From Armatimonadota bacterium (GTDB taxonomy: Bacteria; Armatimonadota; SYMT01), in assembly GCA_041690135.1 (NCBI GenBank), contig JAWLHY010000001.1, positions 160,001 through 224,000 of the forward strand: DNA of 64,000 bases, read 5' to 3'. Below, piece by piece: positions 1,236-20,316 of this stretch. The notes under the pieces are model-generated. The model was not told where the DNA came from. It saw only the letters and a program-made list of their open reading frames with translations, and did not search any database. Made by a program: the position numbers and the translations under genes. Position 1 is the first letter of the stretch, and every line of letters begins with the position of its first letter.

Positions 1236-3200
1236 ATGGCTGAACCCCTCAACCCCGGACGACCGGTACCGATTCCGCAGCCCCCTTATCGCCGGCTGCG
1301 GGTGTATGCGCTGGACCCGAGCCTGGAAACGCGGCTCGAGACGGCGGTCATCAACCAGACGACCGTGAAGGTTCCCTGGGAACCCGGGCGGCCGATGGGC
1401 GACTGCGCCCCGGGATCGCCCGCCCGCCCGGAACCGGTGACGGCCGGGGAGTACCTGGAGCCGGGTCCGGTAGGCGAGTATGTGGAAGTGGTGGATTTCG
1501 ATCCGGCCAGCCGCTGTTTCTACGACCCGGTCGACCTCAGCGATCCGAACCTCCTGGCGCAGGACGGCCTGGAGCCTTCCGAGGGGAACCCCCAGTTCCA
1601 CCAGCAGATGGTGTATGCGGTATCGATGCTCACCATCCGGCACTTCGAGCGAGCGCTGGGACGGCCCGCGCTCTGGTCGCCGCGGCTCATTCGCAATGAA
1701 GACGGGCGAGTGGTGGACGACGCATTTGTCCGCCGCCTGCGGATCTATCCGCACGCCCTGCGGGAGGCGAACGCCTTCTACAGCCCGGAGAAGAAGGCGC
1801 TGCTCTTCGGTTACTTCCCCGCGGGCGCCACCAACCCCGGAGCGCACTTCCCCGGCGGCATGGTGTTCACCTGCCTCTCGCACGACATCATCGCGCACGA
1901 GACCACGCACGCCCTGCTGGACGGGATGCACCGGCGCTTCATCGAGCCGACCAACCCGGACGTGCTGGCGTTCCACGAGGCCTTTGCGGATCTCGTGGCG
2001 ATGCTCCAGCACTTCACCTTCCCGGAGGTGATCCGGCACCAGATTGCGAAGACGCGCGGGGCGCTGGACCGTCAGAACCTGCTGGGCGAGCTCGCGCAGC
2101 AGTTCGGGGCGGCCACCGGCCGGCACGGGGCGCTGCGGAGCGCGATCGGGGAGTTCGACGCCAACCACGAATGGCATCCGAAACAGCCGGACGCTTCGGA
2201 GTTGCAGCGGGTGTTCGAGCCGCATGCGCGCGGCGCTATCCTGGTCGCGGCCGTGTTCGACGCCTTCCTCTCCATCTACAAGTCGCGGGTGGCGGATCTC
2301 CTCCGGATCGCCACCAACGGCTCGGGAGTGCTTCCGGATGGGGAGATCCATCCGGACCTGGTAAATCGCCTCGCCCAGGAGGCCACGCGCGCCGCCCAGC
2401 ACGTGCTGAACATGTGCATCCGGGCTCTGGATTACCTACCCCCGGTGGATGTCACCTTCGGCGAGTACCTGCGCGCGCTGGTCACCGCGGACTACGACCT
2501 GGTGCGGGACGACGACCGTGGCTACCGGATCGCCCTGATCGAGGCGTTCCGGCGGCGCGGCATCTATCCCCGCGAAGTCCGGACCCTCTCGGAGGACAGT
2601 CTTCGCTGGCGGTGTCCCTCCGTGGAAGAAAGCCGGGCCGGTCGCTTCTCGGAGCTGAAGGGGATCCTGGATGGGTTCTCCGCCCGGCTGGAGGACCGCG
2701 AGGAGATCTACCGCCGGATGGGCCAGCGTTGTGCCCGGGTTCACGGCTGGCTGCGGGACCGGCGCGAGGACCCCGCGCTGGCCATGTTGGGGCTGGACCC
2801 GGACCCCCGGCTCAAGGTGGAGGTCCACGCCATCCGTCCCGCCCGACGGGTGGGGCCGGACGGCGACCTGCTCCGCGACGTGGTGCTGATCCTCACCCAG
2901 CGCCGCCCGGAGTTCTTCAACGCGGCGTCCCGCGCCCGCGGCGGGCTGTATTCCGATCCGCCCCGCGACTTCTGGTTCCGCGGGGGTTGCACCCTGGTGC
3001 TGGACGAGCAGACCTTCGACGTGCGGTATTGCATCGTGAAGAACATTAACAGCGAATCGCGGCTGCGGCGACAGCGGGCGTTTCTCACCGGTCGCACGGA
3101 TGCCTCTCTGCGCGCCACCTATTTCGGCGGCTTGAGTGACGGCGACGTGCGGGAGCCGTTCTCGCTCCTCCACCGGTCCCACGAGGAGTGCGAACCATGA
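1236..3200 (+). CDS. Gluzincin (thermolysin/M4-like) zinc metallopeptidase, no signal peptide
   Basis: NAFY, HDIIAHETTH (HExxH), AFHEAFAD (third Zn ligand) and EPHARG motifs; ATG at 1236 in frame with the 1158 ORF. Confidence 0.85.
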   Translation: MAEPLNPGRPVPIPQPPYRRLRVYALDPSLETRLETAVINQTTVKVPWEPGRPMGDCAPGSPARPEPVTAGEYLEPGPVGEYVEVVDFDPASRCFYDPVDLSDPNLLAQDGLEPSEGNPQFHQQMVYAVSMLTIRHFERALGRPALWSPRLIRNEDGRVVDDAFVRRLRIYPHALREANAFYSPEKKALLFGYFPAGATNPGAHFPGGMVFTCLSHDIIAHETTHALLDGMHRRFIEPTNPDVLAFHEAFADLVAMLQHFTFPEVIRHQIAKTRGALDRQNLLGELAQQFGAATGRHGALRSAIGEFDANHEWHPKQPDASELQRVFEPHARGAILVAAVFDAFLSIYKSRVADLLRIATNGSGVLPDGEIHPDLVNRLAQEATRAAQHVLNMCIRALDYLPPVDVTFGEYLRALVTADYDLVRDDDRGYRIALIEAFRRRGIYPREVRTLSEDSLRWRCPSVEESRAGRFSELKGILDGFSARLEDREEIYRRMGQRCARVHGWLRDRREDPALAMLGLDPDPRLKVEVHAIRPARRVGPDGDLLRDVVLILTQRRPEFFNAASRARGGLYSDPPRDFWFRGGCTLVLDEQTFDVRYCIVKNINSESRLRRQRAFLTGRTDASLRATYFGGLSDGDVREPFSLLHRSHEECEP

Positions 3201-4795
3201 GCCAGCCGCAGCCTACCCCACTCACGCGCGTCACGGTCCGCATGTACCGGCAGGGCCTGGGAGATTGCTTCTTCCTGATCTTCGAGGGAGAGGACGGCAC
3301 GCGCCGCACGATGCTTATCGACTGCGGCGTGCTGAAGAACAGCCCGGACGAGCGCCAGCGGATGCGGGAGGTGATCGAGCACCTGCGGGACGAGACCGGC
3401 GGCAAGATCGACGTGCTGGTGGCGACCCACGAGCATTGGGACCACCTGAGCGGCTTCATTCACGCCGAGGACCTGCTATCCGAGTTGAAGGCCGGGGAAG
3501 TGTGGCTGGCCTGGACGGAGAACCCCTCGCACCCGCTGGGCCAGGCCCTCCGGGCGCGGCGGGCGCAGGCTCTGCGGGCGGTCCAGGCCGCGCTGACCCG
3601 CATGCACCTCTCTCTGGACCCGCGGGTGAACGAGACGGCGGAGCGGATTTCCGCCGTGATGGAGTTTTTCGGGCTGGAGACCTCCACGAGCACGAGCGAG
3701 CTGGGCGCGGCGCCGGGCGGAGGGGACGGAGCCTCCGGCCCGCTGCTGGGCGCCAGCCCCGGTACCGCGAAAGGCCTGGAGCTGGTCACGAAGTGCGGGC
3801 CGGTGCGCTACTGCACTCCCGGCGAGATCCTGCACCTGCCGGGGCTGGGCGGGGTGCGGATCTTCGTGCTCGGCCCGCCCGTGGACGAGAAGCTGATCAA
3901 GAAGAGCGACCCCACGAAAAAGGGCCAGGAGGTGTACGAGAAGGGGTTCGCGATGGACCTCAACGCCTCCCTGCTGCACGCCGCGGAGAGCTCCGCCGGC
4001 CGCGGCATCGACCCGGAGCTGGAAGAGCTGAGCTTCCCGTTCGACCGGGTCCGGCAGAAGTCGCCGGAAGCCGCGCGGGCCGACACGTGGTTCCGGCGGC
4101 ACTACTTCGGTGCTCTCCACGCGGATGACCTAACGGCCGGCATCCCCTCCCGCGAGCAGATGGACTGGCGCCGGATCGACGACGACTGGACCGAGGCCGC
4201 CTCTCAGCTCGCGCTGCAGCTGGACAGCGACACCAATAACACCAGCCTGGTCCTCGCTATCGAGTTGGTTGACAGCGGCAAGGTGCTGCTCTTCCCCGGC
4301 GACGCCCAGGTGGGGAACTGGCTCTCGTGGGAGACGCTGAAGTGGGGAGCGCGGGAGCTGGGAAACGGCGCGACCGAGCTGCGGGCGCACGATCTGCTGC
4401 GGCGGACGGTGTTCTACAAGGTCGGGCACCACGCCAGCCACAACGCCACGCTGCGCGCGAAGGGGCTAGAGCTGATGGAGAGCCCCGAGCTGGTGGCGAT
4501 GATCCCGGTGGACGAGGAGGTGGCCCACCGGCCCAAGGGCTCGCTCCGGAACGGCTGGGACATGCCGTTCCCGCCGCTGCTGGAGCGGCTGATGGAGAAG
4601 ACGCGGGGGCGCGTGATCCGCGCCGACCGCGACCTGCCCGCGGAGGCTCCGTCCCACTCCGGCCTCACGGCGGCAGAATGGGCCGCCTTTCGGGAAGCGG
4701 TGGAAGACGCGCAGGATACTTTCAAGACCCGGGACGGCGAGGCATCCGACCGCCGTCTCTACGTGCAGTACACCCTCTCCGTTAAGGCGGAGTAG
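3197..4795 (+). CDS. Metallo-beta-lactamase-fold hydrolase (ComEC/Rec2-like nuclease-type motifs)
   Basis: GLGDC, LIDCG, THEHWDHLSG, NNTSLV, LFPGDAQ, KVGHHAS motifs; ATGA overlap with the upstream stop. Confidence 0.85.
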   Translation: MSQPQPTPLTRVTVRMYRQGLGDCFFLIFEGEDGTRRTMLIDCGVLKNSPDERQRMREVIEHLRDETGGKIDVLVATHEHWDHLSGFIHAEDLLSELKAGEVWLAWTENPSHPLGQALRARRAQALRAVQAALTRMHLSLDPRVNETAERISAVMEFFGLETSTSTSELGAAPGGGDGASGPLLGASPGTAKGLELVTKCGPVRYCTPGEILHLPGLGGVRIFVLGPPVDEKLIKKSDPTKKGQEVYEKGFAMDLNASLLHAAESSAGRGIDPELEELSFPFDRVRQKSPEAARADTWFRRHYFGALHADDLTAGIPSREQMDWRRIDDDWTEAASQLALQLDSDTNNTSLVLAIELVDSGKVLLFPGDAQVGNWLSWETLKWGARELGNGATELRAHDLLRRTVFYKVGHHASHNATLRAKGLELMESPELVAMIPVDEEVAHRPKGSLRNGWDMPFPPLLERLMEKTRGRVIRADRDLPAEAPSHSGLTAAEWAAFREAVEDAQDTFKTRDGEASDRRLYVQYTLSVKAE

Positions 4796-4887
4796 GCGTG
4801 CGGATGCCGGGCCGGGGAATAGCTCCCGGTGCCGGCACGGAATCCGGTTCAGGCCCGACGACGGGCCTTCGTGCGAGGAGGTGGTCC

Positions 4888-7842
4888 GTGGCTTTCACGC
4901 AGATGACGATCGAGCAGTTCGAGGCGCTGGTCAAGAACTACAACTGGAAGCGGAAGATCAACGCGGTGCACATGCACCACACCTGGCGCCCTAACCACGC
5001 GCAGTATCGGGGGCACGCGACCATCCAGGCGATGTGGCGCTTCCACACCCAGGTGAACGGTTGGAGCGACATCGCCCAGCACATCACCATCGCGCCCGAC
5101 GGGACGATCTGGACCGGCCGCGCCTGGAACACGCCCCCCGCAAGCGCCGCCGGGCACAACGGCAACAGCTCCGCCGGCCCGTTCATGTTCGAGATCATCG
5201 GGGATTTCGATACGGGAAAGGACCCGTTCAGGGGTCCCCAGCGCGAGACCGTGCTGCGGGTGATCGTGGCGCTGCAGAAGCGGTTCGGGCTCGCCCCGGA
5301 GACGCTCCGGTTCCACAACCAGATGTCCCCCAAGTCCTGCCCGGGCACGGCCATCAACTACCAGGCGTTCCTGAACGAGGTTCGGGATCTGCACGCGGCT
5401 CCGGCCGCGCGGGCCGCTGATGGGGGAGAAGAGGGCGGTCCGGATTGGGAGCTGATCGCCGCCGTCTCGAACGAGCGGTCGTTCGCGGACCCGGCGGACG
5501 CGGAGCCCCAGGAACACGGCACGGAAGAGTTCTTCTACGAGGCGGAAAGCCGTGGCCGGAGCGGCATGGACGTAGCGGCGCGGGGCGGTGGGGACATCGA
5601 CCTCACCGAGACCGTCCTGGACTTCCTCCGCCCCCACGTCATCAACCTGAACCAGGGGCAGTTCTCCGATGGCGGCAAGTTCCAGAGCGACGGGGGACAG
5701 GTCCGCGCGATCTTCGAGCAGCATTTGACCCAGGCGGTGGAAGACGCGGAGCGGGAAGGCAAGCTGCCGCTGCGCATCGTGTTCTACGCGCACGGGGGGC
5801 TCGTCTCCGAGTCCAACGCCCTCCGGATGGCATTCACCCACATCCAGTGGTGGAAGGCCAACCGGGAGCTCAACCGCCAGGGCGGCGGCAAGAACTACAG
5901 CGTCTACCCGCTCTACTTCGTGTGGGAGACCGGCTTCTTCGAGACGCTGGGCCAGCTCCTCTCCCGGATCCGGCTCCGCGGCCGGCGCGCCGTGCGGGAC
6001 GTGTTCGACTTTACCACGGACCCCGTGATCGAGATGGCGTCGCGGACGCTCCAGGGGCCGACGATCTGGGGCGGCATGAAGTTCAGCGCGGACCTGGCCT
6101 CCCGTCCCGAGGGCGGCGCCCGGGTCGTGGCGGAGATGCTCGCGGAGTTCTGCAGCCGGGACGAAATCCGCGGCAAGGTGGAGCTGCACGCGGTCGGCCA
6201 CAGCGCCGGCTCTATCTTCCACGCCCACTTCATCCCGGCGGTCCAGAAGGTCCTGGAGGACAAGCCCGAAACCGGCCTCACGGGCTTCAAAGAGGTCCAC
6301 TTCCTGGCGCCGGCGATCCGGGTAGACCAGTTCGAAAACCTGCTCGGCAACCGGATCGGCAACGGGCAGGCGATCGAGCGGCTGACCATGTACACCATGC
6401 GTCGCGACGTGGAGCGGGCCGACCACTGCGCGCAGGTCTACCGCAAGTCCCTCCTGTACCTCATCTACCACGCCCTGGAGCGGGACCCCCGCACCCCCAT
6501 CCTGGGGCTGGAGGAGTCGCTCTGGAAAGACCCGGATCTGCGTCGCCTCTTCGGCCTGACGGGCGGTGGGAGCCCGGGGGAGGTCATCTGGTCCCCATCG
6601 CCGTCGGAAGAGGGGCGCTCCGCCAGCCGGTCCCGCACGCACGGCGGCTTCGACAACGACGCCCCCACCATGAACAGCATCCTGCGGCGAGTGTGCGGGC
6701 TCGACGATAACGACCCGATCCACTCCTTCCCGGAGAAGCGCGAGCGGTCGCTCAACGAGTGGGAAGGCCAGGTGGACTGGCCGGAAGAGCTGGCCTTCAT
6801 GAGCGAGGCCCCCGGCGACCGGGACGGGGGGCAGGAAGGGGGTCCGGGCATCGGCCCCTTCCGCGGTGAAGCCGGCGCCCGCTCCGTGACCGGCACGCGC
6901 CGCGCGCTGTGCGTGGGGATCGACGAGTACCCCACCGCCCCGCTGGGGGGCTGCGTGGCCGACGCCCGGCTCTGGAGGGAGACGCTCGCCCGGCACCGTT
7001 TCGCGGAGATCCAGACCCTCTTCAACGGCGAGGCCACCCGCGGCGCGATCCTGGACCGGCTCCGGGCGCTGATCGCCGCCAGCCGGGCGGGCGACGTGGT
7101 GGTGTTCCAGTTCGCCGGGCACGGCACGCAGGCCCGCGACATGACGGGAGATGAGGCGGACGGCGACACGCCCGGCCTCGACGAAGCGATCTGTCCACAC
7201 GACTTCGGCGACGGCCGGCTCCTGATCGATGACGACCTGGCCGAGGTGTTCCGCTCGGCCCCGGCCGGCGTGGGCATCACCTGCTTCATCGACTGCTGCC
7301 ACTCCGGCACCATCACGCGGTTCGCCGTGGGCGGCCCCACGGGAGCCGCCTCCGGAGAGAAAGCGCGGTACCTGAAGCTCACGCCCGAACAGATGGCCGC
7401 CCACGTGCGGTTCCGCCGCGGGCTCGGCCGGTCGCGAGCCACCACCCACCGCGGCCCCCAGGAAATGCGCGAAGTGGTGTTCTCCGCCTGCAGGTCCGAC
7501 GAGGTCGCCCTGGAAAGCAACGGAAACGGCCACTTCACGGTCCGCGCCACCCGCGTGCTGCAGATGGGCGCCGACGGGATCACCAACCAGGAGTTCTACC
7601 GCCGCGTGCTGGAAGCGTTCGGTCCCGCCCCGCGGCAGCATCCGGTCCTGGACTGCTCGCCGGCCTCCCAGGAGTTCCTCCTGCTGGCCCCGGTAGCCGG
7701 CGGCACCCCGGCGTCCCCGGCGTCTCCCTCGAGTACGCCCTCGACCGCCGGATCTCCGCCCCGCGCCGACGGCGCATCCGGTGATCTGGAAGCCCTCTCC
7801 CGCGCCCTCCGCGCCGCCGCGGACGCCCTTCAGCGCCCGTAG
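4888..7842 (+). CDS. Fusion of PGRP/Amidase_2 N-acetylmuramoyl-L-alanine amidase, alpha/beta hydrolase and caspase-like C14 peptidase
   Basis: GAGGAGGT RBS then GTG at 4888; amidase HMHHT, WSDIAQH, FHNQ...KSCPG; hydrolase FYAHGG, GHSAG, THGGFDND; caspase ALCVGID, FAGHG, IDCCHSG, SACRSDE. Confidence 0.85.
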   Translation: MAFTQMTIEQFEALVKNYNWKRKINAVHMHHTWRPNHAQYRGHATIQAMWRFHTQVNGWSDIAQHITIAPDGTIWTGRAWNTPPASAAGHNGNSSAGPFMFEIIGDFDTGKDPFRGPQRETVLRVIVALQKRFGLAPETLRFHNQMSPKSCPGTAINYQAFLNEVRDLHAAPAARAADGGEEGGPDWELIAAVSNERSFADPADAEPQEHGTEEFFYEAESRGRSGMDVAARGGGDIDLTETVLDFLRPHVINLNQGQFSDGGKFQSDGGQVRAIFEQHLTQAVEDAEREGKLPLRIVFYAHGGLVSESNALRMAFTHIQWWKANRELNRQGGGKNYSVYPLYFVWETGFFETLGQLLSRIRLRGRRAVRDVFDFTTDPVIEMASRTLQGPTIWGGMKFSADLASRPEGGARVVAEMLAEFCSRDEIRGKVELHAVGHSAGSIFHAHFIPAVQKVLEDKPETGLTGFKEVHFLAPAIRVDQFENLLGNRIGNGQAIERLTMYTMRRDVERADHCAQVYRKSLLYLIYHALERDPRTPILGLEESLWKDPDLRRLFGLTGGGSPGEVIWSPSPSEEGRSASRSRTHGGFDNDAPTMNSILRRVCGLDDNDPIHSFPEKRERSLNEWEGQVDWPEELAFMSEAPGDRDGGQEGGPGIGPFRGEAGARSVTGTRRALCVGIDEYPTAPLGGCVADARLWRETLARHRFAEIQTLFNGEATRGAILDRLRALIAASRAGDVVVFQFAGHGTQARDMTGDEADGDTPGLDEAICPHDFGDGRLLIDDDLAEVFRSAPAGVGITCFIDCCHSGTITRFAVGGPTGAASGEKARYLKLTPEQMAAHVRFRRGLGRSRATTHRGPQEMREVVFSACRSDEVALESNGNGHFTVRATRVLQMGADGITNQEFYRRVLEAFGPAPRQHPVLDCSPASQEFLLLAPVAGGTPASPASPSSTPSTAGSPPRADGASGDLEALSRALRAAADALQRP

Positions 7843-7867
7843 CGCACTCCCGGCAATCACGCAGCGC

Positions 7868-7907
7868 ACAGGCAAGGCCCGCGCCACCCGGCACGGGCCT
7901 TGCCTGT
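7868..7907 (+). terminator. Hairpin after the protease operon
   Basis: ACAGGCAAGGCCCG ... CGGGCCTTGCCTGT inverted repeat just after the stop at 7842. Confidence 0.5.
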
Positions 7908-8033
7908 TGGCCCCTCTCCTCTGTGGCCGCCGGGGTGCGCATCCGTGTTGCGTCGCGGTAGAACAGTTCCTCCGAAAGGCCCACGGGAGGCAGTGGTCAC
8001 CTTCGCCGACGGACATCCGGCGAAAGCGCACTC

Positions 8034-8063
8034 TTGACGCCCGTTCGGTCCGCTGTCTATAAT
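8034..8063 (+). promoter_or_regulatory. Sigma70-type promoter of the tRNA-Ala locus
   Basis: TTGACG (8034-8039), 18-bp spacer, TATAAT (8058-8063). Confidence 0.75.
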
Positions 8064-8101
8064 GTGGCGTCGCTGGGGACCACCCCCAGTAGCCCCACCC
8101 G

Positions 8102-8128
8102 AGGGCCTGTGGCTCAGTTGGGAGAGCG
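8102..8128 (+). repeat. Exact copy of the tRNA-Ala 5' end (acceptor 5' strand plus D arm)
   Basis: AGGGCCTGTGGCTCAGTTGGGAGAGCG identical at 8102-8128 and 8179-8205. Confidence 0.9.
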
Positions 8129-8179
8129 TCCATCCGGAAGTTCCGGGGATCGCCAGCTATCACCATGACAACCAGATAA

Positions 8180-8252: not shown

Positions 8253-10241
8253 TCATTGTAAGACCCGCACCGTCAGGTGCGGGTCTTTTTGCATTGTCGG
8301 GGCCGCGGTGTACCGGTTGCATAACCTTTGGGGTTGTGGAGGGATGCCTCCTACCCCTACGTCTGGCTGGTTCGAGGGACGAAGGGGCTTGCCCAGCAGC
8401 GACTTCCATATCGGGATCTGCTCCAGCGTTAACAAGCCCAAGGCCTCCTTCTCCAGTTCCTGGCGGGCCTGGAGCATCCTCTGGCGGAGGGCGCCGGGGT
8501 TGCCGGTCGCCATCGCCTGGCTCTGGAACGCCTCCATCTGCTGTTGCAGCCGTCGCATGATCTCCTGGAATTGCTGTCGCTGCTCCGGCGTCAGGCCCAG
8601 GGCCGTGCCCACGCGCGGATCGCCCAGCGCGAAAGCCCCCTGCTGCTGCAGCTCGATCTCCCACAGCCGGCCCTGCTGCGCCGGGGTCAACAGTTGCTGC
8701 AGAACATTCCGCAGCCTCCGATCCGCGGTGGGACGGTACTCCTGGATCCTTGCGCCGGGATCGGGCCGTGGTCCGCCCTGGAACAGGTCCCGCAGCTCGC
8801 CACGGATCTCGGCCAGGGTGGGGCGCAGGCGCTCTCTCTGAACGGGCGTAAGCCGCAGGTCCGATTGGACTGCCGGCAGATCGATCAGGAACGCGGTACC
8901 CAGAAGCTCGTGCAGCGGCGGCAGACCTCCGGGATCGGCGGCGGTGGAGGTGAGGCCGGCGTAGGGCCTTCCGAGGAAGCCGTAGCGGACCTCCGTGTTC
9001 ACATTCAGGTTGCGGCCCGCCGGCAATCGTGCCACCAGGGGCTCCCCGCCGTTCCCACCGGAGGTCCAGCGCAGGACCTCTTTCCCCTGGGCCGCCAGTG
9101 CGAGGTGCTGGATGCGAGCCCCCTCGAACTTAAGGAAACCTTCCCACTTCAGGCGAATGGTGTGGTGGAAGACGGCGCCGTCCGGTCGGGGGGCCGGCAC
9201 CGCGGCCACATCCGAAACGCCGTCCACCCGGTAAAGGTCGGGTGTCCCCGGCGTCCGCGTGGCCCACAGCTCGTAGCACTGCGTCTTTCCGTCAGCTTCC
9301 GTGGCGCCCGCCAGCGGCTGCACGTCGAGCTCTCCCAGGTAGGCGCGGGAGACGCACTGTCGCGCGAAAGCATCGGGGAGCCGCACGCGCTGTTCCCCGG
9401 CGCCCCGCAGCGTTTCGGCCACCCGCACCTGCAGCTCGGTCGTCACCTCGAAGCGGTCCTGTGCGTAGTCTTCCTGGTTGACCGGGTTGGCCACAAGGGA
9501 TCCCCGGGCGTCCACGGCCCTCCCGAACACCTGGACGTCCAGCGTTCCCGCGGGGAGCCGGCGCTCCGCGGGGCAGGGGGTGCCCTCGTGGTCCTGGGGG
9601 AGCGGCCGGATCGCTGGTGCAGCGGGGAGGTCTCCCACGGAGACCGTGGGATAGCGTTGGAACCGGCGGGTCGCGAAGGGGGCACTGCCGTCTGGGTGCG
9701 CGCGGAACCATCGCCGGGTCTCGTCGAGGAACGCCTGGACCTTTGCCTCGTTCTCGAACGTCAGGCTCCAGGCCAGCACCTGCCCGTCCCCGTTGAGGAC
9801 CGCCAGCCCCTGGGGCGCAGGAGCGGAGCGGCCGGCGGCGGCGAGCACTCGCCCCTCGGGATCGGAAGGCGGCCGGTGCAGGCGGACGGCGCCGACCGAG
9901 ACGGGAATGAACTCCGCGTTGACGCGGCGGATCACGGTGGGATCGCTGAACACCGCCTCACGGACGGCGCCCGCGAACACTCAACAGCGTTCCTCCTGGG
10001 GGTCCGCATTGATGAAGGCCCACAGCAGCACCGGCTTCTGCTGCTCGCGGGCCTCACGCAGTCCCTGCAGCAGGCACTTCCGCCAGGCGATCGCCCGCCA
10101 CGTGAGCTTCGGCGGACTTAGCGCCTCGATCTCCGCGGTGAGTGAGGCGAGCGTCTTCTCCGGCGCAGTGGGTCCGGCCAGCGGCGCTCCCAGCCCAACC
10201 CCGGCCACCGCAATCAGTCCGATCCAACCCAGGGCGCGCAT
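8253..10241 (-). CDS. Predicted selenoprotein: secreted SelN-like thioredoxin-fold protein (C-U motif) with C-terminal LTxxQ (Spy/CpxP-like) repeats
   Basis: ORFs 9981-10241 and 8253-9980 are contiguous in one frame across a single TGA (9981-9983): KPVLLWAFINADPQEERC-U-VFAGAVREAVFSDP; SECIS-like hairpin follows; N-terminal signal peptide. Confidence 0.75.
8260..8290 (+). terminator. Intrinsic terminator after the tRNA
   Basis: AAGACCCGCAC-CGTCAG-GTGCGGGTCTT followed by a T run. Confidence 0.8.
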
Positions 10242-12286: not shown

Positions 12287-12346
12287 CCCGCCCCTGGGGT
12301 AAAATAGGTTGTAATGGGATCCACCGATTCTGGGGAGAGGCAGCCG

Positions 12347-13216
12347 ATGAACCTGACGGCACTGGACCACGCCGACAGCCTGGCACAGGCGAAGATGCAC
12401 TATGCCCGCTGGGGTCACCAGGGGCCGCGGGTGCTGTTCGTGCATCCCATCGGGTTCGACCACACCACCTGGGACCGCGTGGTGCCGCATTTCCAGAAGC
12501 AATATCAGATGGCGGCCGTGGACCTGCCCGGGCACGGTAAGAGTGACAAGCCGTCGGCGGTTGACTATGGGGTACGCTCGCTCGGCGCGCGGCTGGTGCG
12601 GCTCCTGGACGAGCTGGAGTGGGAAGATGCCATCCTGGTGGGCAACAGCATCGGGGGCGGGGTCTCCCTGGCGGCCGCGCTCCAGGCCCCGGAGCGGGTG
12701 CGGGGTCTGGCCCTGTTCAACACGGTTGCCTACCGTCGCGGTCTGCCGCCGGTGGGGCGCCTCGCGTTCATGCCGATGGTCCCCCTGGTGAGCTGTTATG
12801 CGCCGCCGGTGTTCCGGCGGGTGGGGCTCGACTTCGCGCGCCACGGATGGGGGAAGGTGTCGCAAGACCGGTGCGATCAGGCCGGTCGCTACCTGCGGGA
12901 GCCGGAGGGGCGGACCGCCTTTTTCCGGACCCTCCGCCAGCTTTACGGTCCCGACCTCGAGGTTCTGGCGCCGCATTACCGCGAGATCCACTGTCCCACG
13001 TTGGTGGCCCACGGCGTCACCGATCCGCTGATCCGGCTCTGGCACGCGGAGCAGTTGGCCTCCGATATCCCCACGGCGGAGCTGGTGCGGCTCCCGCAGT
13101 GCGGTCACTTCCCACAGGAAGAGCGCCCGCGCGAGGTGACCGAGCTGTTAGCGCCGTTCCTGGAGCGCGTCAGCACTGGGCAATCCGGGCGATCGCTCTC
13201 GCCCGCTGCGCCATAG
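12347..13216 (+). CDS. Alpha/beta hydrolase
   Basis: DLPGHG, GNSIGG nucleophile elbow, C-terminal GHFPQEE. Confidence 0.9.
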   Translation: MNLTALDHADSLAQAKMHYARWGHQGPRVLFVHPIGFDHTTWDRVVPHFQKQYQMAAVDLPGHGKSDKPSAVDYGVRSLGARLVRLLDELEWEDAILVGNSIGGGVSLAAALQAPERVRGLALFNTVAYRRGLPPVGRLAFMPMVPLVSCYAPPVFRRVGLDFARHGWGKVSQDRCDQAGRYLREPEGRTAFFRTLRQLYGPDLEVLAPHYREIHCPTLVAHGVTDPLIRLWHAEQLASDIPTAELVRLPQCGHFPQEERPREVTELLAPFLERVSTGQSGRSLSPAAP

Positions 13217-13328
13217 CACAGTGAACCGCCCCCTCCTTCCAGGGGAGAATACGGTTAGATCCGGTGGCGACGCCACCCCGGTGTGGGGTAACGGCAGGCG
13301 CCCGGAGCAGAGCCGAAGGAGGGGACGG

Positions 13329-13973
13329 ATGGCCAACGTGTTGACCGTGGTGTGGTTCGTGATCGCCTACGTGCTGGCGCAAACGAGCCTGATGTTCTGG
13401 GCCGCCATGATGTTTCCGGCCCGGGTGGAGCGCGCGCGGGAGCGGGTCGAGAACCGTCCCGCAAAGTGCTTCTTTAGCGGCCTTCTGGTGTGGGGGCTCC
13501 ACTTCCTGGTGGCCATGGCCTTCATCAAAGAAGGCAATCCGGGGCCGCTGCAGCTCTTCGGCTGGATCACCCTCGCTCCGATGCTGGCGGGCTCGGTCCT
13601 GGGCGGCGGCGCCTTCGCGGAGATCGTCGCGGAGCGGATTCGGCAGCGCTCCGGCAGCACCGCCGTCGTTCCCACCCTGCTCGGCGGCGCGCTGGCCACC
13701 ACCCTGGGCGGCCTGATGCCGGTCATCGGCTGGTTCGTCTTCTTCCCGCTGGTGAGCTTCATCGCCGTCGGCGCCGGCTACCCGGCCCTGTTCCGCCCGC
13801 GCCAGCCGAAGAAGGCCGCCGTCCAGGACGCTCGCCTGGAGGAGTTCGCGCCGGTGGCATCCGCCGGTGCGCCCACGGTGCCCGCCGGTCTCACCGTCTC
13901 CACGGCTTCCGGTCCGGCCGCCTACGAGGGCTCCGAGTTCACGGCTCCCGGATCGTTTTCCTCTCACGCATAA
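13329..13973 (+). CDS. Hypothetical multi-pass membrane protein
   Basis: AGGAGG RBS before ATG 13329; about five hydrophobic helices. Confidence 0.7.
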   Translation: MANVLTVVWFVIAYVLAQTSLMFWAAMMFPARVERARERVENRPAKCFFSGLLVWGLHFLVAMAFIKEGNPGPLQLFGWITLAPMLAGSVLGGGAFAEIVAERIRQRSGSTAVVPTLLGGALATTLGGLMPVIGWFVFFPLVSFIAVGAGYPALFRPRQPKKAAVQDARLEEFAPVASAGAPTVPAGLTVSTASGPAAYEGSEFTAPGSFSSHA

Positions 13974-13994
13974 ACCAACGGACTAGCACGGACG

Positions 13995-15509
13995 ATGCGA
14001 CTGAACCGAAGTGAGTTCCTCACGTTAACGGCGGGCACGGCCGGGGCGCTGGCGCTCTCGGGCTGCACGGAGATCACCCGCCGGGCCTCTGCCCCCGGGC
14101 TGCCCGAACGGCTGGGGGAAGCGGAAGCCGCGGAGCACTCCCACGAGTGGCGCCTGCTGAACCGGATGAGCTTTGGACCGCGGCCCGGCGACCTGGAGCG
14201 AGTGCGAGAGATGGGCGCGGATGCCTATATTGAGGAGCAGCTCGCCCCGGAGCGGATCGAGGAGAGCCGGGCGGCGTGGATGCGCCTGCTGCCCCTGGAC
14301 ACGTTGGAGATGGACGCGGCCGACGCCCAGGACTGGGAGATGGCGAACTACCCGGAGGTGGGGAAGGGCCAGGCGGCCGTGGAGCTCCAGCAGGCGTGCG
14401 TGCTCCGGTCCGTCTACAGCACACGCCAGCTCCAGGAGGTGATGGTCGAGTTCTGGACCGATCACTTCAACGTCAGTCAGCTCAAGGCGGAGTGCTCATG
14501 GCTGAAGACGGTGGATGACCGCCTCCTCCGCAAGCACGCCCTGGGCAAGTTCCGGGACCTGGTAAACGCTTCCGCGCACAGCCCGGCGATGCTCTTCTAC
14601 CTGGACAACGACAAGAACGAGAAGCGAGATCCGAAGACCGGATCCGGCGCCAACGAGAACTACGCCCGCGAGCTGCTGGAGCTCCACACCCTGGGGGTGG
14701 ACGGGGACTACTCCTTAAAGGACATCCAGGAGGTGGCGCGCTGCTTTACGGGCTGGACCTACAAGAAGGGCTTCACGTTCTGGCCCGGCGACTTCGTGTT
14801 CGACGCGAAGAAGCACGACGATGGGCCGAAAAGGGTCCTCGGGGTGCCGATCCCGCCGGGCCAGGGTGTTAAGGACGGCGAGCAGGTGATCGATATCGTC
14901 TGCGAGCACCCCAGCACCGCGCGGTTCGTCGCCCGCAAGCTCTGCCGCCGGTTCGTGGCGGACCAGGCTCCAGAGGCGCTGGTGGCTCGCCTGGCCGGTG
15001 TCTTCACGAAGACGGACGGGGATATCCGGCAGGTCCTCTCCGTGCTGTTCCGGAGCGAGGAGTTCCGTCACGCGGGGAACCGGAAGCTGAAGCGGCCCTT
15101 TGATTTTGCCGTGTCGGCCCTCCGTGGTGTGAATGCGGATACCACCGGCGCGGGGGTGCTGCCGTACCTGGAGCGGATGGGGCAGCTTCCCTATAAGTGG
15201 ACAATGCCGGACGGCTATCCGGAGCGGGTGGATGCCTGGACGCCCAGCCTGCTGAGCCGCTGGAACTTCGCGCTGGACCTGGTCACCGACAAGATCCCCG
15301 GCACCCGCGTGAACGCGCCGGCGCTGGCGAAGGCCACCGGAGAGAAGGAACCGCTGGAGGTCTACCGCGCGCTGTCCCGGTCGCTCCTGGGCCAGGCCCT
15401 GCCGCCGGACCGCCTCCGCAGCCTGGTTGATCTGTCGCAGAAGGGCGGCAGAGAGGTCCGCCAGTGCCTGGCCCTCCTCCTCGCCACTCCCGCTTTCCAA
15501 TGGAGGTAG
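13995..15509 (+). CDS. DUF1800 family protein, Tat/lipoprotein-like N-terminus
   Basis: LNRMSFGPRPGD, FWTDHFNV, NENYARELLELHTLG motifs; paired with DUF1501. Confidence 0.9.
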   Translation: MRLNRSEFLTLTAGTAGALALSGCTEITRRASAPGLPERLGEAEAAEHSHEWRLLNRMSFGPRPGDLERVREMGADAYIEEQLAPERIEESRAAWMRLLPLDTLEMDAADAQDWEMANYPEVGKGQAAVELQQACVLRSVYSTRQLQEVMVEFWTDHFNVSQLKAECSWLKTVDDRLLRKHALGKFRDLVNASAHSPAMLFYLDNDKNEKRDPKTGSGANENYARELLELHTLGVDGDYSLKDIQEVARCFTGWTYKKGFTFWPGDFVFDAKKHDDGPKRVLGVPIPPGQGVKDGEQVIDIVCEHPSTARFVARKLCRRFVADQAPEALVARLAGVFTKTDGDIRQVLSVLFRSEEFRHAGNRKLKRPFDFAVSALRGVNADTTGAGVLPYLERMGQLPYKWTMPDGYPERVDAWTPSLLSRWNFALDLVTDKIPGTRVNAPALAKATGEKEPLEVYRALSRSLLGQALPPDRLRSLVDLSQKGGREVRQCLALLLATPAFQWR

Positions 15510-15514
15510 TAACT

Positions 15515-16741
15515 ATGCCCCAGCCATCCAGTCAACCTCGGATCTCCCGGCGCGACCTGCTGCGGGGGAAGGGCAAGACCTCGAAGCTGGTGTTCCGGCC
15601 GGAAACCGGGCCGGGCGGCGACGTGCTGATCGCCATCTTCCTCCGGGGCGCGATGGACGGGCTCCACACGGTGCCGCCGCTCGGGGATGATCATTATGCC
15701 AGGCAGCGGCCCACGCTGGCGATCCCGGAGCCGGGCAAGGCGAAGGCCGCGCTGGACCTGGACGGTTACTTCGGTCTCCACCCGGACCTCGACCCCCTGC
15801 TGGAATTGTGGCAGGAGCGTCGCCTGGCGGTGGTCCACGCCATCGGCAGTCCGGATACCACGCTCTCGCACTTCGAGGCGATGCAGACGATGGAGCGCGG
15901 CGTTTCGGACGGCAACACCACCGCCAGCGGCTGGCTCAGCCGGCACCTGGCGAGCCTCGCGGTGGAGAACACCTCTCCGGTCCGGGCGCTCGCTTTCGGC
16001 GACGTGCTGCCGAAGTCACTCCAGGGTAGCCTCAGCGCCACCGCGGTCCGCTCGCTCAAAGAGTTCCGCCTCGGAATCCCCAAGGATTGGGATGCCGGCT
16101 TCCGAGGTCTCCTGACCTCCCTCTACGAAGAGGGGCAGGACCCCGCCTCTCGCGCCGGCCGCAACATCCTGGAACTCCTCGAAAGCCTGGAGAAGCTCGA
16201 CCCGGACACCTATCAGCCGGAGCGAAGCGCGAAGTACCCGGAGACGGAGTTTGGGCGCGGATTGCGGCAGGTGGCCCAGTTCGTGAAGGCGGACGTGGGC
16301 CTGGAAGTGGCCTCCGTCGATCTTGGCGGATGGGATGCCCACGTGGCGCAGGTCGCCCTGATGACGGGCCTGATGACGCAGCTTTCCCAGGGCCTCCACG
16401 CGCTCTACACCGACCTGGGCGACCGCATGCGCCGGGTCACGGTGCTCGCCATGACCGAGTTCGGGCGCCGCGTCCACGAGAACAGTGGCCTGGGCACGGA
16501 CCACGGCCGCGCCAGCGCCATGTTCGTGCTGGGGGGCGGCGTACGCGGCGGTAAGGTCTATGGACGCTGGCCCGGCGTCGCTCCGGCGCAGCTCGATAAG
16601 GACGGCAACCTCCGCGTCACCACCGACTACCGCGACATCCTCTCCGAGGTGGTCACCAAACGCCTGCGCAACCCGCACGCGGACCGCGTCTTCCCCGATT
16701 ACACCCCCCGGCCGCTTTCCCTCTTCGAGCCGGTTACCTAA
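15515..16741 (+). CDS. DUF1501 family protein
   Basis: IFLRGAMDGL, SHFEA, GGWDAH, TEFGRR, GTDHG motifs. Confidence 0.9.
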   Translation: MPQPSSQPRISRRDLLRGKGKTSKLVFRPETGPGGDVLIAIFLRGAMDGLHTVPPLGDDHYARQRPTLAIPEPGKAKAALDLDGYFGLHPDLDPLLELWQERRLAVVHAIGSPDTTLSHFEAMQTMERGVSDGNTTASGWLSRHLASLAVENTSPVRALAFGDVLPKSLQGSLSATAVRSLKEFRLGIPKDWDAGFRGLLTSLYEEGQDPASRAGRNILELLESLEKLDPDTYQPERSAKYPETEFGRGLRQVAQFVKADVGLEVASVDLGGWDAHVAQVALMTGLMTQLSQGLHALYTDLGDRMRRVTVLAMTEFGRRVHENSGLGTDHGRASAMFVLGGGVRGGKVYGRWPGVAPAQLDKDGNLRVTTDYRDILSEVVTKRLRNPHADRVFPDYTPRPLSLFEPVT

Positions 16742-16838
16742 CGTATGATTGGTGGCTCGTGAACTCGGGTGAATGGGTGAAAGAGAGAGCGGGAGAATGG
16801 GAGTGCGGCAAAGGGAAGCGGAGAGATAGTTCCTAAAG

Positions 16839-18176
16839 TTACTGACGGGCGGGTGGGGAGAGAAGGTGCTTCGGGGCAGCCAGGAACTCCACGACGCGGG
16901 TCTTCTGCAATGCGAACGTGGCAGTGAGGGTTCTTGCACCTCCTCGAATCCTCATGGCGTAGTCGTAGGAGGCCCAGCCGTTGTTGGTGCGCCACCAGGA
17001 TGTCCAATCGGGCTCGTGAACTACAGGGCGTCCCCGGTCGTCAACCATCTTCACCAGGGTGAGGTGATAACCCGGCTCTCCTGTATCGAGGCGAGCATTG
17101 AGGGTGGTCGGGGTTCCGCGTGCGAAACCGCGAAGGGAGACTTCGATTTTCCCGATCTTCGTGCTGCGATTGATGTCGATTATCTGCCCCCAATCAGGAG
17201 CCGGGATGTTTTCGACGGTCCAGAGCTCCTCCGGGCGGAAAGGGGAATCGGGCGTGCGGGCCAGCTCCACTTCCACTTTCCACGCCGGCTCGCAGAAGGG
17301 TAACATCCCCGGAGCCCAGAGGCGACTCTTGTTAGCGTGAGACGATGTCCTCCCCATCCCCTGGCGTTCGTAGCGGTTGCCGGTAGCGTCTGCATACGTC
17401 ACGTCGATAGGTGTCCAACGCGTGGCACCCTTGCCTAGGAAGCGGCTTGCCACCTGGATGAAGGCGCTACTTCCAAATACCCGACCCATCTGGGTGGCCC
17501 GCGTGGGATCCCTCGAATCACCGCCATTGGTGAACTGCTGGAGCGTGCACTCCAGGTCGCCATCCCGTACGGATACGGGCAGCGGCTGCGTCTTCCAATC
17601 GGGATGTGGCCCGGGGTCCGGGTTAGGGAGCCGGAATTCTGCCACGGGCTTGCGGTTGGCTTCCCGGTTGGGACCGTACATGCGTAAGCCTACCCAGGTC
17701 CCACGACGGGGAAAGGTCCGCAAAGCAAACGATACCACCTGGGTTCGGCCACCCGTATGGTACGTAGCGAGCTCGGCGGCCGGGCGCTCACACCCGTGCT
17801 CATCGAAGATCGTCCAGTCGGCCATATCGCCCAACACGTGCTGAAAGGCAGAAGTGCCGGGTGCCGCGCCTCGGCGAACCGTCCAAACCACTGGCACGCT
17901 CGGGTCCGGCCGGACTTCCTTCTCGAAAGCGCCCAAGCCAGTCCAATACCCCAATGGCCGTGGTAGCAGTGAGGCCAAAAGCCCCGCAAGCTTTCCACCG
18001 GGGACGAAGCGGTGCTGGGGGCCGTAGGTAATGGCCTCCAGGCTGAGGGTGGAGCCGTCGGGGAGGCGGCGCACCTGGAGGGGCTGGCTCGGGCGGTTGG
18101 CGAAGACCAGCAGCGTGATCAGCCCGGCCAGGAGCAGCCAGAGCCCGGGACGGAAGCTTCGTTTGCGGCGCGACAC
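16839..18176 (-). CDS. Hypothetical membrane-anchored or secreted protein
   Basis: 445-aa ORF with basic N-terminus and TM helix; no recognised catalytic motif. Confidence 0.65.
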   Translation of the reverse strand: MSRRKRSFRPGLWLLLAGLITLLVFANRPSQPLQVRRLPDGSTLSLEAITYGPQHRFVPGGKLAGLLASLLPRPLGYWTGLGAFEKEVRPDPSVPVVWTVRRGAAPGTSAFQHVLGDMADWTIFDEHGCERPAAELATYHTGGRTQVVSFALRTFPRRGTWVGLRMYGPNREANRKPVAEFRLPNPDPGPHPDWKTQPLPVSVRDGDLECTLQQFTNGGDSRDPTRATQMGRVFGSSAFIQVASRFLGKGATRWTPIDVTYADATGNRYERQGMGRTSSHANKSRLWAPGMLPFCEPAWKVEVELARTPDSPFRPEELWTVENIPAPDWGQIIDINRSTKIGKIEVSLRGFARGTPTTLNARLDTGEPGYHLTLVKMVDDRGRPVVHEPDWTSWWRTNNGWASYDYAMRIRGGARTLTATFALQKTRVVEFLAAPKHLLSPPARQ

Positions 18177-18283
18177 ACTTGCCTATACGCCACCGGTATC
18201 TCCAGTCCCTGCGTGCGGCGGTCTATCGGGTTAGACAGTCTGAGGAGACTGTGCTAAGCGATCGAACCAGCATCTTAACGCGA

Positions 18284-18312
18284 AAGGGAGCAGCCGCGTT
18301 GGCTGCTCCCTT
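18284..18312. terminator. Hairpin terminator downstream of tpx
   Basis: AAGGGAGCAGCC-GCGTT-GGCTGCTCCCTT. Confidence 0.65.
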
Positions 18313-18350
18313 CTCAATCTGCGCCATCTGTGGACTCGATGGCCCGACGA

Positions 18351-18869
18351 CTAAATCGCGGCGCGGGCGGCTTCCAGGATGGCGTCGTAGTTCGGCTCCT
18401 GGGCAACTTCGGGCACGTACTCGCTGTAGACGACCACGCCCTGCTTATCGACCACGAAGGCGGCGCGGGCGTAGATGCCGAGGCCCTCGATCTCCACGCC
18501 GTACTTCTTGCCGAAGTCGCGGTCGCGGAAGTCGGAGAGGGTCTGGATGTTGGTCGCACCCTCGGCGCCGCACCAGCGGGCCTGCGCGAACGGCGTGTCG
18601 ATGCTGACGACCAGCACGACCACCTCATCGCCGAGTTCCGCCGCGTGATCGTTGAACTTCTTGGTCTCCAGGGAGCAGACGGGGGTGTCCAGGGACGGGA
18701 CGGAAAGGATGACCCGGACCTTGCCGTTGGTGTCGGAAAGGGAGGTGGGGGTTACCAGGTTCTTGAGCGCGGTGAATTCGGGGGCATCCTCATTCGCCTC
18801 GATCGCGGGACCGAGGAGCGTAATCGGATTGCCTTTCATGGTCACGGCGCCTTCGCGTCGTTCTGCCAT
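18351..18869 (-). CDS. tpx: Thiol peroxidase (Tpx, atypical 2-Cys peroxiredoxin)
   Basis: SVPSLDTPVC, DTPFAQARWCGAEG, EPNYDA motifs. Confidence 0.95.
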   Translation of the reverse strand: MAERREGAVTMKGNPITLLGPAIEANEDAPEFTALKNLVTPTSLSDTNGKVRVILSVPSLDTPVCSLETKKFNDHAAELGDEVVVLVVSIDTPFAQARWCGAEGATNIQTLSDFRDRDFGKKYGVEIEGLGIYARAAFVVDKQGVVVYSEYVPEVAQEPNYDAILEAARAAI

Positions 18870-19035
18870 CGCAGTCTCCTTCAAGCTGTCGAACAGCCGG
18901 GGATGATCTTCGGGAAGCGGTGGGTGTCAGTGCGGTCAGCGGGCTGGCACCCCCATGTTATATCATCCGGACCTGCGGGGGTTCGCGGCGAGACGCGCGC
19001 ATTTCCGAACCGCCCCAGACCCCGGATCCCATCAC

Positions 19036-20019: not shown

Positions 20020-20249
20020 GTACGGATAAGGATTGCGATAAGGATAATGATGTGGGTCGCGATCTGTGAAGCCGCCCCCCAATTACGAGGGTTTCGGCAT
20101 TCCCTAGTCTTCCGGAAGCGGGACGGGAGTTCCTCCCGGAATGCCTGAAGGTGAGGGACGGTGGGGGAGAACCACGGCAGGCAGTAGCCGGCCCTGGTCC
20201 AAGAACTCCAGACACGCAATACACCATACGCATCCACGAAGAAGCATGG

Positions 20250-20276
20250 AAAACGGCCTGCCCGGGGGCAGGCCGT
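20250..20276 (-). terminator. Intrinsic terminator of the CxxU gene
   Basis: ACGGCCTGCCC-GG-GGGCAGGCCGT hairpin followed by TTTT on the minus strand. Confidence 0.65.
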
Positions 20277-20316
20277 GGAAGTTTCGGGACCAGGCGGCCC
20301 CGGCAACTCCGGACGA

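Follow-up and report, generated by a model that had tools for sequence, protein, structure and literature searches.

We analyzed a stretch of 64,000 nt from an Armatimonadota bacterium (GenBank assembly GCA_041690135.1, contig JAWLHY010000001.1, positions 160,001 to 224,000 of the forward strand; subsequently named the window), which carries a gene for a single polypeptide joining an Amidase_2 / PGRP-type domain, a lipase-like alpha/beta-hydrolase and a caspase-like protease. This tri-enzyme gene is the last of three genes on the plus strand. The first encodes a zinc metallopeptidase-like protein with a predicted thermolysin/fungalysin fold, referred to as the partner in the following, and the second a hydrolase of the metallo-beta-lactamase (MBL) fold, whose gene overlaps that of the partner by 13 nt. 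A common operon is the best explanation for the three genes. With maximum Kyte-Doolittle hydropathies over 19 residues (KD19) of 1.16–1.43, the highest value belonging to the partner, none of the three proteins contains a transmembrane segment or a signal peptide. The coordinates of all features are collected in Table 1.

Table 1. Features of the three-gene locus, in window coordinates
Feature	Position	Strand	Basis or remark
Thermolysin/fungalysin-fold zinc metallopeptidase-like partner, 654 aa	1236..3200	+	AlphaFold2 fold, motifs
Partner HETTH	1896-1910	+	
Partner HEAFAD	1974-1991	+	
MBL-fold hydrolase, 535 aa	3188..4795	+	Pfam Lactamase_B; HEHWDH 3428-3445
Shine-Dalgarno GAGGAGG	4875..4881	+	6 nt 5′ of tri-enzyme GTG; sequence read
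Whole amidase / alpha-beta-hydrolase / caspase gene	4888..7842	+	984 aa plus stop
Amidase_2 / PGRP-type domain	4948..5346	+	Pfam, alignment to T7 lysozyme
Amidase Zn-ligand motif VHMHHTW, aa 27-33	4966-4986	+	Alignment to T7 lysozyme
Gln64 at T7 lysozyme Tyr46 position (catalytic Tyr)	in 5074-5091	+	Alignment
Amidase FH143	5311-5328	+	Zn ligand
Amidase KSC151	5332-5346	+	Zn ligand
Linker 1, acidic, variable	5347..5592	+	Conserved DPADAEP motif 5488-5508
Lipase-like alpha/beta-hydrolase domain	5593..6807	+	AlphaFold model, fold comparison
Hydrolase HGG oxyanion motif, aa 302-304	in 5788-5802	+	
Hydrolase Arg-rich low-confidence loop, aa 358-371	5959-6000	+	
Hydrolase GHSAG, aa 437-441	6196-6210	+	
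Hydrolase ERADHC acid (D512)	6412-6429	+	
Hydrolase His585	in 6637-6654	+	
Linker 2, variable	6808..6897	+	Pro-rich in most homologues; ends in basic GTRR at caspase start
Peptidase_C14 (metacaspase/orthocaspase-like) domain	6898..7668	+	Pfam, homologue counts
Caspase AGHGT, His745	7114-7128	+	
Caspase IDDD	7225-7239	+	
Caspase DCCHSG, Cys804	7291-7308	+	
Low-complexity P/S/A tail	7669..7839	+	Ends in short helix-like motif 7786-7839
12-bp GC-rich hairpin with T tail	8260..8287	.	Consensus scan only

The tri-enzyme frame is open from 4798 to 7842 and has a GC content at third codon positions (GC3) of 0.91. We place the start at the GTG because a Shine-Dalgarno sequence lies 6 nt upstream, because the protein's own database entry (P0003) has 984 residues and because the 86% identical homologue P0004 begins with MAFTQMT. 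An open reading frame (ORF) of 1105 aa on the opposite strand (4849-8166) was rejected as a high-GC shadow, both GC3 and homology favoring the plus frame. A search with the tri-enzyme protein returned 1040 proteins at E ≤ 0.001; the best 120 of them are 920–1011 aa long, share 48–100% identity over 91–100% of the query, and are flagged with both Pfam domains in 117 cases. Residue counts given below refer to these 120 proteins, those for linkers and loops to 26 homologues. The homologues stem from Armatimonadota, Nitrospira, Binatia, Tectimicrobiota, Polaromonas, Nitrosomonas and others, and 43 genomic loci with relatives of the gene were fetched from species genomes of more than 12 phyla. The fusion is therefore not an assembly artefact. 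With a single exception, the amidase Tyr position treated below, catalytic residues are retained in 116 to 120 of the 120 proteins; the three domains are genuine and strongly constrained.

The N-terminal domain scores 49.5 bits (E 7.1e-13) with Pfam Amidase_2 (PF01510), for which the cut-off is 26, and its best solved relatives by sequence are T7 lysozyme and insect PGRPs. When aligned to T7 lysozyme, its zinc ligands correspond to H17, H122 and C130; H143 and C151 are retained in all 120 homologues and the N-terminal H28, H30 and H31 in 118, while Lys149, the equivalent of T7 Lys128, is kept in 116. Fold and zinc site are thus those of the amidase family, and the domain is a putative amidase.

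Searches of Pfam, NCBIfam and PADLOC up to E 1 gave no family for the 400 residues between amidase and caspase. We obtained an AlphaFold model of this region from an alignment of 33 sequences (pLDDT 89.1, pTM 0.90), according to which the middle domain is an alpha/beta-hydrolase of the lipase/esterase type. Structural comparison by VIA-align yielded 334 chains at Z ≥ 8: PGAP1 with Z 12.8 (223 residues aligned, root mean square deviation 3.7), followed at Z 10-12 by Lpx1, hornet phospholipase A1, PlaB, Tle4, LP-PLA2 and many esterases. Foldseek ranked 4o5p_A, which we take to be Tle1, first and then lipases and dienelactone hydrolases; 6sjl_E (Tle1) and 4r1d_A (Tle4) are also among the fold neighbors. 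The motifs occur in canonical order, with HGG after strand 3, GHSAG after strand 5, the acid after strand 7 and the His after strand 8. All 120 homologues have Ser439 and His585, 119 have D512, and HGG is invariant or nearly so. The sole family lead is DUF900, which makes up 27% of the members of a neighboring Atlas cluster; no description of DUF900 together with a caspase was found in the literature. A loop modeled with low confidence (pLDDT 52-65) carries 3-6 Arg or Lys residues in 26 of 26 homologues and is, by analogy, a candidate caspase cleavage site.

For the C-terminal domain, Pfam Peptidase_C14 reports 80.6 bits against a cut-off of 21.4, with GSU0716 and metacaspases as best solved relatives by sequence. 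The His-Cys dyad (H745 and C804) is retained throughout the 120 homologues, and the acidic IDDD and DEA motifs are invariant. In PADLOC the tri-enzyme protein is matched by the generic 'caspase' model alone, and the cut-off of the EACC1-associated caspase (NCBIfam NF047832) was not reached (33 bits vs 140). The linkers on both sides of the hydrolase differ in character: linker 1 is acidic in all 26 homologues (11-20 Asp or Glu), and linker 2 is Pro-rich, mostly non-acidic and devoid of Arg and Lys in 6 of 26, so that Arg sites of the linkers are not conserved in position. Behind the P/S/A-rich tail, the C-terminus is formed by a short motif resembling an amphipathic helix, LEALSRALRAAADALQRP (7786-7839); most of the 26 homologues in the alignment have a similar C-terminal motif, and about four lack it.

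These results bear on a sequence-only reading that preceded our analysis. It had recognized one ORF joining amidase, hydrolase and caspase, starting at the GTG, and the zinc ligands, the GHSAG motif and the HG and DCCH motifs that it singled out are the residues we found conserved; the two Pfam families that it proposed to look for score above their cut-offs, and its worry that the fusion might be a chimera was dispelled by the near-full-length homologues in many phyla. Its picture of acidic linkers with Arg sites holds for the strings it quoted and for the acidity of linker 1, but not for linker 2 or for the Arg positions. Its view of the amidase active site was correct for the zinc ligands and missed the exchanged Tyr. 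Treating the protein on its own, it named the domains correctly but overlooked the conserved thermolysin-like partner and the MBL protein of the same operon.

The partner did not match any Pfam family (E up to 0.01) and gave no NCBIfam or PDB sequence match; the Pfam Peptidase_M4 threshold was not reached, and its homologues yield sub-threshold matches only. Its assignment follows from an AlphaFold2 model (pLDDT 75.9, pTM 0.85), which was also submitted to Foldseek. Residues 13-456 superimpose on M36 fungalysins with Z 23.1-23.4 and on the M4 enzymes thermolysin, LasB, vibriolysin, ProA and aureolysin with Z 18.5-20.4, aligning 279-325 residues, and the next family follows at Z ≤ 9.9. All 22 partners aligned have H221, E222, H225, H247 and E248, and D252 is nearly invariant. 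By its model the partner is thus a two-lobed thermolysin-like gluzincin (clan MA(E)) in which HExxH and the downstream Glu ligand are present. It shares with M4 thermolysin and M36 fungalysin the two-lobed catalytic fold over about 440 residues and the HExxH ... HEAFAD signature, but differs from these enzymes in lacking a signal peptide or propeptide, in its low identity (10-16%) and in an additional C-terminal region of about 200 aa to which no fold was assigned.

The partner family is very large, with at least 8000 near-length matches and 2379 longer ones; among the matches listed, the closest named relative is labelled Armatimonadetes. One homologue of 2069 aa (P0311) is fused to a STAND-type AAA_16/NPHP3_N NTPase, pYEATS is flagged in two more (P0203 and P0172), and further fused homologues are P0251 and P0307. 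We considered whether homologues of ~1200 aa are fusions of partner and MBL and rejected this, as 0 of 240 listed match MBL; 145 of them carry an N-terminal extension. In 2 of 6 such forms scanned (1123-1221 aa) the extension gave a weak sub-threshold Peptidase_M4 match, and it may be a second protease domain in tandem. Of the caspase-linked partners, 11 of 21 start, about 10 residues from the N-terminus, with the motif S/T-T-P-x-A-x-x-A-x-A-Q/E-S/T-R (for example L007:10876-, L017:11033- and L034:10983-), which is absent from the MBL-type partner of the window; judged from its Arg-ending sequence it could be a metacaspase site or a plug. A predicted complex of the caspase domain (aa 655-979) with the partner scored 0.00 against a mark of 0.32, a value obtained without controls that is evidence neither for nor against an interaction.

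The MBL protein matches Pfam Lactamase_B (29.4 bits vs cut-off 22.7). In PADLOC it is matched by the LmuA-type MBL (4e-12), DRT-MBL (3e-07) and Avs1a (0.003) models, and its sequence thus resembles defence-associated MBLs; the NCBIfam cut-offs of NF041809 Avs1a (29.1 vs 420 bits) and NF058524 6A-MBL (30.6 vs 220 bits) were not reached, and a PDB sequence search gave marginal matches to the N-terminal MBL part only. Behind the metal-binding motif the protein has a low-complexity insert of 32 residues rich in Ser, Thr, Gly, Ala and Pro (3680-3775), which is a candidate for the sort of flexible loop that is cleaved in MBL zymogens. Downstream of the operon the strong hairpin listed in Table 1 is the sole terminator-like site on the plus strand, and it also lies at the 3′ end of a convergent ORF (8253-9980). 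NTPase, vWA or VMAP genes do not adjoin the operon.

We next turn to the genomic context. The ORFs of the 43 fetched loci and the window were clustered together (44 loci). Two gene families alone recur, the caspase fusion and the partner, the latter in 34 of 44 loci, and the flanks differ everywhere. Where at least 1.5 kb of downstream sequence is available, the partner lies directly 3′ of the caspase gene in 27 of 35 loci, in many of them with gaps or overlaps of a few bases. The fusion itself is variable: in the 43 loci we found amidase-hydrolase-caspase 27 times, hydrolase-caspase 10 times, amidase-caspase 4 times and a caspase match alone twice (one of these, L040, is cut by the contig start). 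Hydrolase and caspase are both kept in 37 of the 43, amidase or hydrolase is absent or replaced in 15, and the caspase is the constant part. When 8 variant proteins were scanned with Pfam, DUF7379 was found N-terminal to hydrolase-caspase in 2. A constant caspase combined with swappable enzymes directed at wall or lipids therefore points to effector behavior. The second match with the caspase alone is a Litorilinea relative of the caspase domain (L039:4860-8795, 48% identity); in place of amidase and hydrolase it carries SH3_3 plus an N-acetylmuramidase (PF11860), and no partner gene lies nearby.

The window departs from the gene order of these loci, with the partner first, the MBL gene second and the fusion last. 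The MBL gene shows the complementary pattern. No MBL homologue occurs among the 43 caspase-anchored loci, and in 14 of 15 partner-anchored loci the partner is followed by an MBL gene, without caspase, hydrolase or amidase nearby. Additional destructive enzymes accompany these cassettes: an S8 subtilase is fused in front of the partner in three loci (L063, L065 and L078), a patatin-like phospholipase gene is located directly upstream on the same strand of a partner-MBL pair (L060:7524-8774), and so is a calcineurin-like phosphoesterase gene in two others (L083:7489-8676 and L086:6969-8033). The partner family is hence a hub for destructive enzymes.

As expected of accessory genes, the distribution is patchy. 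Of 301 genomes from the phylum of the window 15 contain the partner, as do 6 of 401 genomes in a Pseudomonadota sample, and the tri-enzyme gene is present in 1 of 5 genomes of the same family. In a quick maximum-likelihood tree of 36 partners, in which phyla are mixed, the 21 caspase-linked ones form one clade (SH-aLRT 99), and the partner of the window is nested among MBL-linked partners (SH-aLRT 97). Because of this placement and of the presence of the tri-enzyme gene in only one of the five genomes, we regard the window as a partner-MBL cassette that gained a caspase polyprotein. The closest metagenomic relatives of the fusion (P0004/P0006) and of the partner (P0125/P0126) have longest contigs of 8529 and 11593 bp in common, which suggests the same gene arrangement in these relatives. 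In IMG/VR the patterns used returned no relative of the partner and, for the fusion, distant caspase domains only (25-30% identity); a phage-borne origin was dropped, as IMG/VR offers no support for it beyond these domains.

What we observed are the three domains, intact catalytic residues, conserved gene pairs, modular swapping, patchy spread and the lack of export signals. We propose, with a probability of about 0.5, that the operon is a protease-gated cell-death module, probably of the abortive-infection type, composed of soluble cytoplasmic hydrolases. The precedent is LcCaspase, which cuts a separate LcHydrolase after Arg73 and Arg117 to give fragments that kill E. coli (Evans et al. 2025, 10.1101/2025.11.14.688446, main text); the same main text describes MBL-fold zymogens beside trypsin-, caspase- or S8-type proteases that become double-stranded DNA nucleases. 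An Arg/Lys specificity of the caspase domain is expected from its nearest relatives and from LcCaspase. The tri-enzyme protein would then be an effector polyprotein with a constant C-terminal metacaspase-like domain, which most likely cuts after Arg in the Arg-rich loop of its own hydrolase and/or in the linkers. Cleavage would activate the latent lipase-like hydrolase, which would then damage the membrane, and would set the amidase free, which could reach peptidoglycan or its precursors once the membrane is damaged. The thermolysin/fungalysin-fold partner would be a constant second protease, probably providing the initiating or licensing step, and in the window two arms may be under its control: the caspase polyprotein and the MBL-fold hydrolase, the latter being a latent nuclease by analogy. 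Within this scheme the amidase would be a wall-directed effector and not a sensor as in the insect IMD (immune deficiency) pathway.

Several points weigh against this proposal. That cleavage takes place, in which order and on which substrates, what triggers it and whether it serves phage defence are what we infer by analogy with such modules, and the hydrolase was likened to LcHydrolase by its published description. A conserved R-G cleavage motif was not found in the hydrolase loop: RG occurs in 8 of 26 homologues, and the loop therefore does not carry the LcHydrolase motif. None of the three proteins contains a recognizable sensor domain, the best PADLOC match of the partner (E 0.027) was judged spurious, and the partner is absent from 8 of 35 caspase-fusion loci. 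As to the order of the two proteases, a metalloprotease that holds the caspase in check is equally conceivable. The flanking genes (12314-26863: Abhydrolase_1, DUF1800, two DUF1501, PSCyt2/PSD1, redoxin and permease genes) belong to families typical of planctomycete-like genomes and not to defence genes. A cytoplasmic amidase has access to the wall only after a breach of the membrane. Finally, 119 of 120 homologues have Gln where T7 lysozyme has Tyr46, so the domain lacks the catalytic Tyr of amidases and its activity as an effector is uncertain. According to the text of PMC4573324, this Tyr is conserved along with the His/His/Cys site in all amidase-active PGRPs; T7 lysozyme, the Ts2631 endolysin and active PGRPs depend on it for their activity, and a Phe variant leaves 10% activity in a related endolysin. 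The exchange leaves some room for a binding instead of a catalytic role.

If the metalloprotease acts as a brake, it would degrade or hold down the caspase polyprotein (and the MBL protein) in the manner of a toxin-antitoxin pair, and death would follow when the protease is inhibited or titrated, for example by a phage product. The tight and often translationally coupled pairing would suit such an arrangement, as would the fact that one partner family guards different destructive enzymes without a recognizable sensor. However, the proteases of the protease-effector modules studied so far switch their effectors on (main text of Evans et al. 2025), and a fusion gene without its partner, as in the eight loci mentioned above, would be lethal if the partner were an essential antidote. 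We consider this alternative unlikely.

A sensing role of the PGRP-type domain was one of two interpretations offered by the sequence-only reading. In insects PGRP-LC and PGRP-LE signal to the caspase Dredd, as separate proteins joined by adaptor domains. Transferred to the tri-enzyme protein, the domain would be a non-catalytic or slow receptor for cytoplasmic muropeptides, such as anhydro-muropeptides or the UDP-MurNAc-peptide accumulating under wall attack, and binding would activate the caspase, which would act on other targets. Muropeptides do occur in the cytoplasm (AmpD/AmpR recycling), the protein is cytoplasmic, no other sensor domain is visible, and the zinc site is kept while the Tyr needed for amidase activity is Gln. 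Against it, the amidase is absent in 10 of 43 loci that keep hydrolase-caspase and the partner, the different wall enzyme of the Litorilinea protein (SH3 plus muramidase) fits swappable effectors better, and Cys151 is kept without exception and Lys149 nearly so, whereas non-catalytic PGRPs typically lose the zinc Cys. With the amidase dispensable and its zinc site kept, we regard IMD-like sensing as improbable. The other interpretation, self-cleavage releasing hydrolase and amidase, comes close to the cell-death module favored here and has an analogue in LcCaspase (main text of Evans et al. 2025).

Export of the protein and a housekeeping role are both unlikely, because export signals are lacking, the flanks are variable and the spread is patchy. 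An exported antibacterial toxin, polymorphic-toxin-like or of the type VI secretion system (T6SS) type, would use amidase and lipase to attack the envelope of a rival and the caspase as releasing peptidase. Amidase plus lipase is a typical antibacterial toolkit, the fold neighbors of the hydrolase include the T6SS lipases Tle1 and Tle4 named above, and caspase-like domains are described as releasing peptidases in polymorphic toxins in the text of PMC3482391. There, however, the releasing caspase lies upstream of the toxin, and here it is C-terminal; moreover, no recognizable trafficking domain was found besides the missing signal peptide and transmembrane segment, no secretion-system or small immunity gene is conserved nearby in the 44 loci, and the downstream gene encodes a 650-aa protease and not an immunity protein, which makes this explanation quite unlikely. 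Even more doubtful is a housekeeping or developmental autolysin, a wall-remodelling or recycling complex without a role in conflict, as suggested by the analogy through which Asplund-Samuelsson et al. 2012 (PMC3501461) tied Amidase_2-metacaspase fusions to autolysis and developmental lysis in their text, since the sporadic spread, the mixed phyla in the tree, the cytoplasmic location and the association with MBL, subtilase, patatin and STAND modules all speak against it.

The genome of the window holds a second copy of the caspase domain in a protein of 2771 aa (G000:C5:398657-406972; L048:4658-12973). This copy (L048:10700-11500) is 63% identical to the caspase of the tri-enzyme protein and its dyad is dead, with His changed to Arg and Cys to Ser. 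The 2771-aa protein also has wHTH-Hsp90_Na-associated, TGS, HEAT and TIR domains, and the neighbors of its gene encode trypsin+EAD8, VMAP-C and a MoxR-like AAA protein; judged by these domains the locus is a ternary conflict locus of the type described by Kaur et al. (see below). The first ~190 nt of the dead copy are about 96% identical in DNA to positions 6892-7080 of the window, and the whole alignment reaches 79% over 422 nt, a mosaic that looks like gene conversion or selection for matching surfaces. This suggests that the tri-enzyme polyprotein may also be recruited in trans by the VMAP/MoxR system. A joint reading goes further: one thermolysin-fold initiator would govern an MBL pro-nuclease and a caspase polyprotein performing inside-out lysis, in which the lipase breaches the membrane and the fused amidase reaches the wall (the logic of holin and endolysin without a holin), and the polyprotein would also be wired in trans to the NTPase/TIR conflict system via the dead copy, which is nearly identical over its first 60 residues and could pair with the active caspase like a pseudo-caspase regulator. 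We put this combination forward as a speculation that is unlikely to hold in full.

Compared with known systems, the operon combines familiar and apparently new elements. The listing of Asplund-Samuelsson et al. 2012 (PMC3501461), the only literature on Amidase_2 with Peptidase_C14 that we found, concerns the same family: its text names four such metacaspases, speculates on autolysis and leaves the middle hydrolase and the partner unmentioned, and the listed protein of Polaromonas naphthalenivorans is a 50%-identical full-length homologue (P0094) of the tri-enzyme protein. T7 lysozyme and the catalytic PGRPs have the Amidase_2 fold family, the His/His/Cys zinc ligands and the Lys128-equivalent in common with our domain, but here the Tyr46-equivalent is Gln and the domain is part of a cytoplasmic multidomain protein. 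The insect IMD pathway likewise brings a PGRP-type domain and a caspase-fold protease into one pathway; in our case both lie on one chain without adaptors, and the PGRP part looks like a swappable enzyme.

The LcCaspase/LcHydrolase module, described in the main text of Evans et al. 2025 as widespread and modular, shares with the tri-enzyme protein a caspase-like protease tied to a lipase-like alpha/beta-hydrolase, which is fused here, and its hydrolase is a latent death effector unlocked after Arg. In contrast to that module we found one polypeptide with an additional amidase, no fused sensor domain and a thermolysin-like constant neighbor. Also, the two conserved Arg-Gly sites that flank the lid of LcHydrolase are replaced by one Arg-rich loop. 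In the vWA-MoxR/VMAP ternary conflict systems (Kaur, Burroughs, Iyer, Aravind 2020, PMC7159879) caspase domains are, according to the text, always accompanied by an alpha/beta-hydrolase and both are predicted joint effectors. The hydrolase-caspase pairing is thus common to both, and the genome of the window has such a locus with the dead copy; an amidase is not part of those systems, and the text mentions neither amidase nor thermolysin, although its source data may list more.

MBL-fold hydrolases always encoded beside a protease are known from the trypsin-MBL pairs of Hachiman, AVAST and others (main text of Evans et al. 2025; 10.1101/2025.09.03.673762; PMC12799240), and MBL clades that go with caspase or S8 proteases are among those given by Evans et al. 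In contrast to these protease-gated MBL modules the constant neighbor in our loci has the thermolysin fold, a class not named in the main text of Evans et al., and S8, where present, is fused to the partner. With the Avs1a, HamM and 6A-MBL zymogens the MBL protein has HxHxDH and a protease neighbor in common but stays below the curated cut-offs; a nuclease role would be by analogy. The same main text does not mention metalloprotease, thermolysin or amidase, though its supplements could hold such lists. Neither the thermolysin-fold partner nor its pairing with a caspase polyprotein or MBL, nor a peptidoglycan-directed domain in such modules, turned up in the literature that we searched, though supplements could likewise list them. 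What is known is therefore the Amidase_2 plus C14 architecture (2012) and the caspase/hydrolase logic (preprint), and apparently new are the metalloprotease hub and the wall-directed domain.

Protease-gated death effectors have recently been proposed as a dominant logic of anti-phage defence, and those examined to date rely on proteases of the trypsin, caspase or subtilisin type that are linked to recognizable sensors. The unannotated thermolysin-fold family described here is the constant neighbor of several presumably latent killers, namely the MBL protein, the caspase-lipase-amidase polyprotein and the patatin and subtilase add-ons. If our proposal is true, it would settle the role of a PGRP-type domain inside the bacterial cell, provide bacteria with a counterpart of two-step protease cascades that can be tested, and extend the protease-gated logic known from these systems by a fourth class of protease and a peptidoglycan-directed effector.

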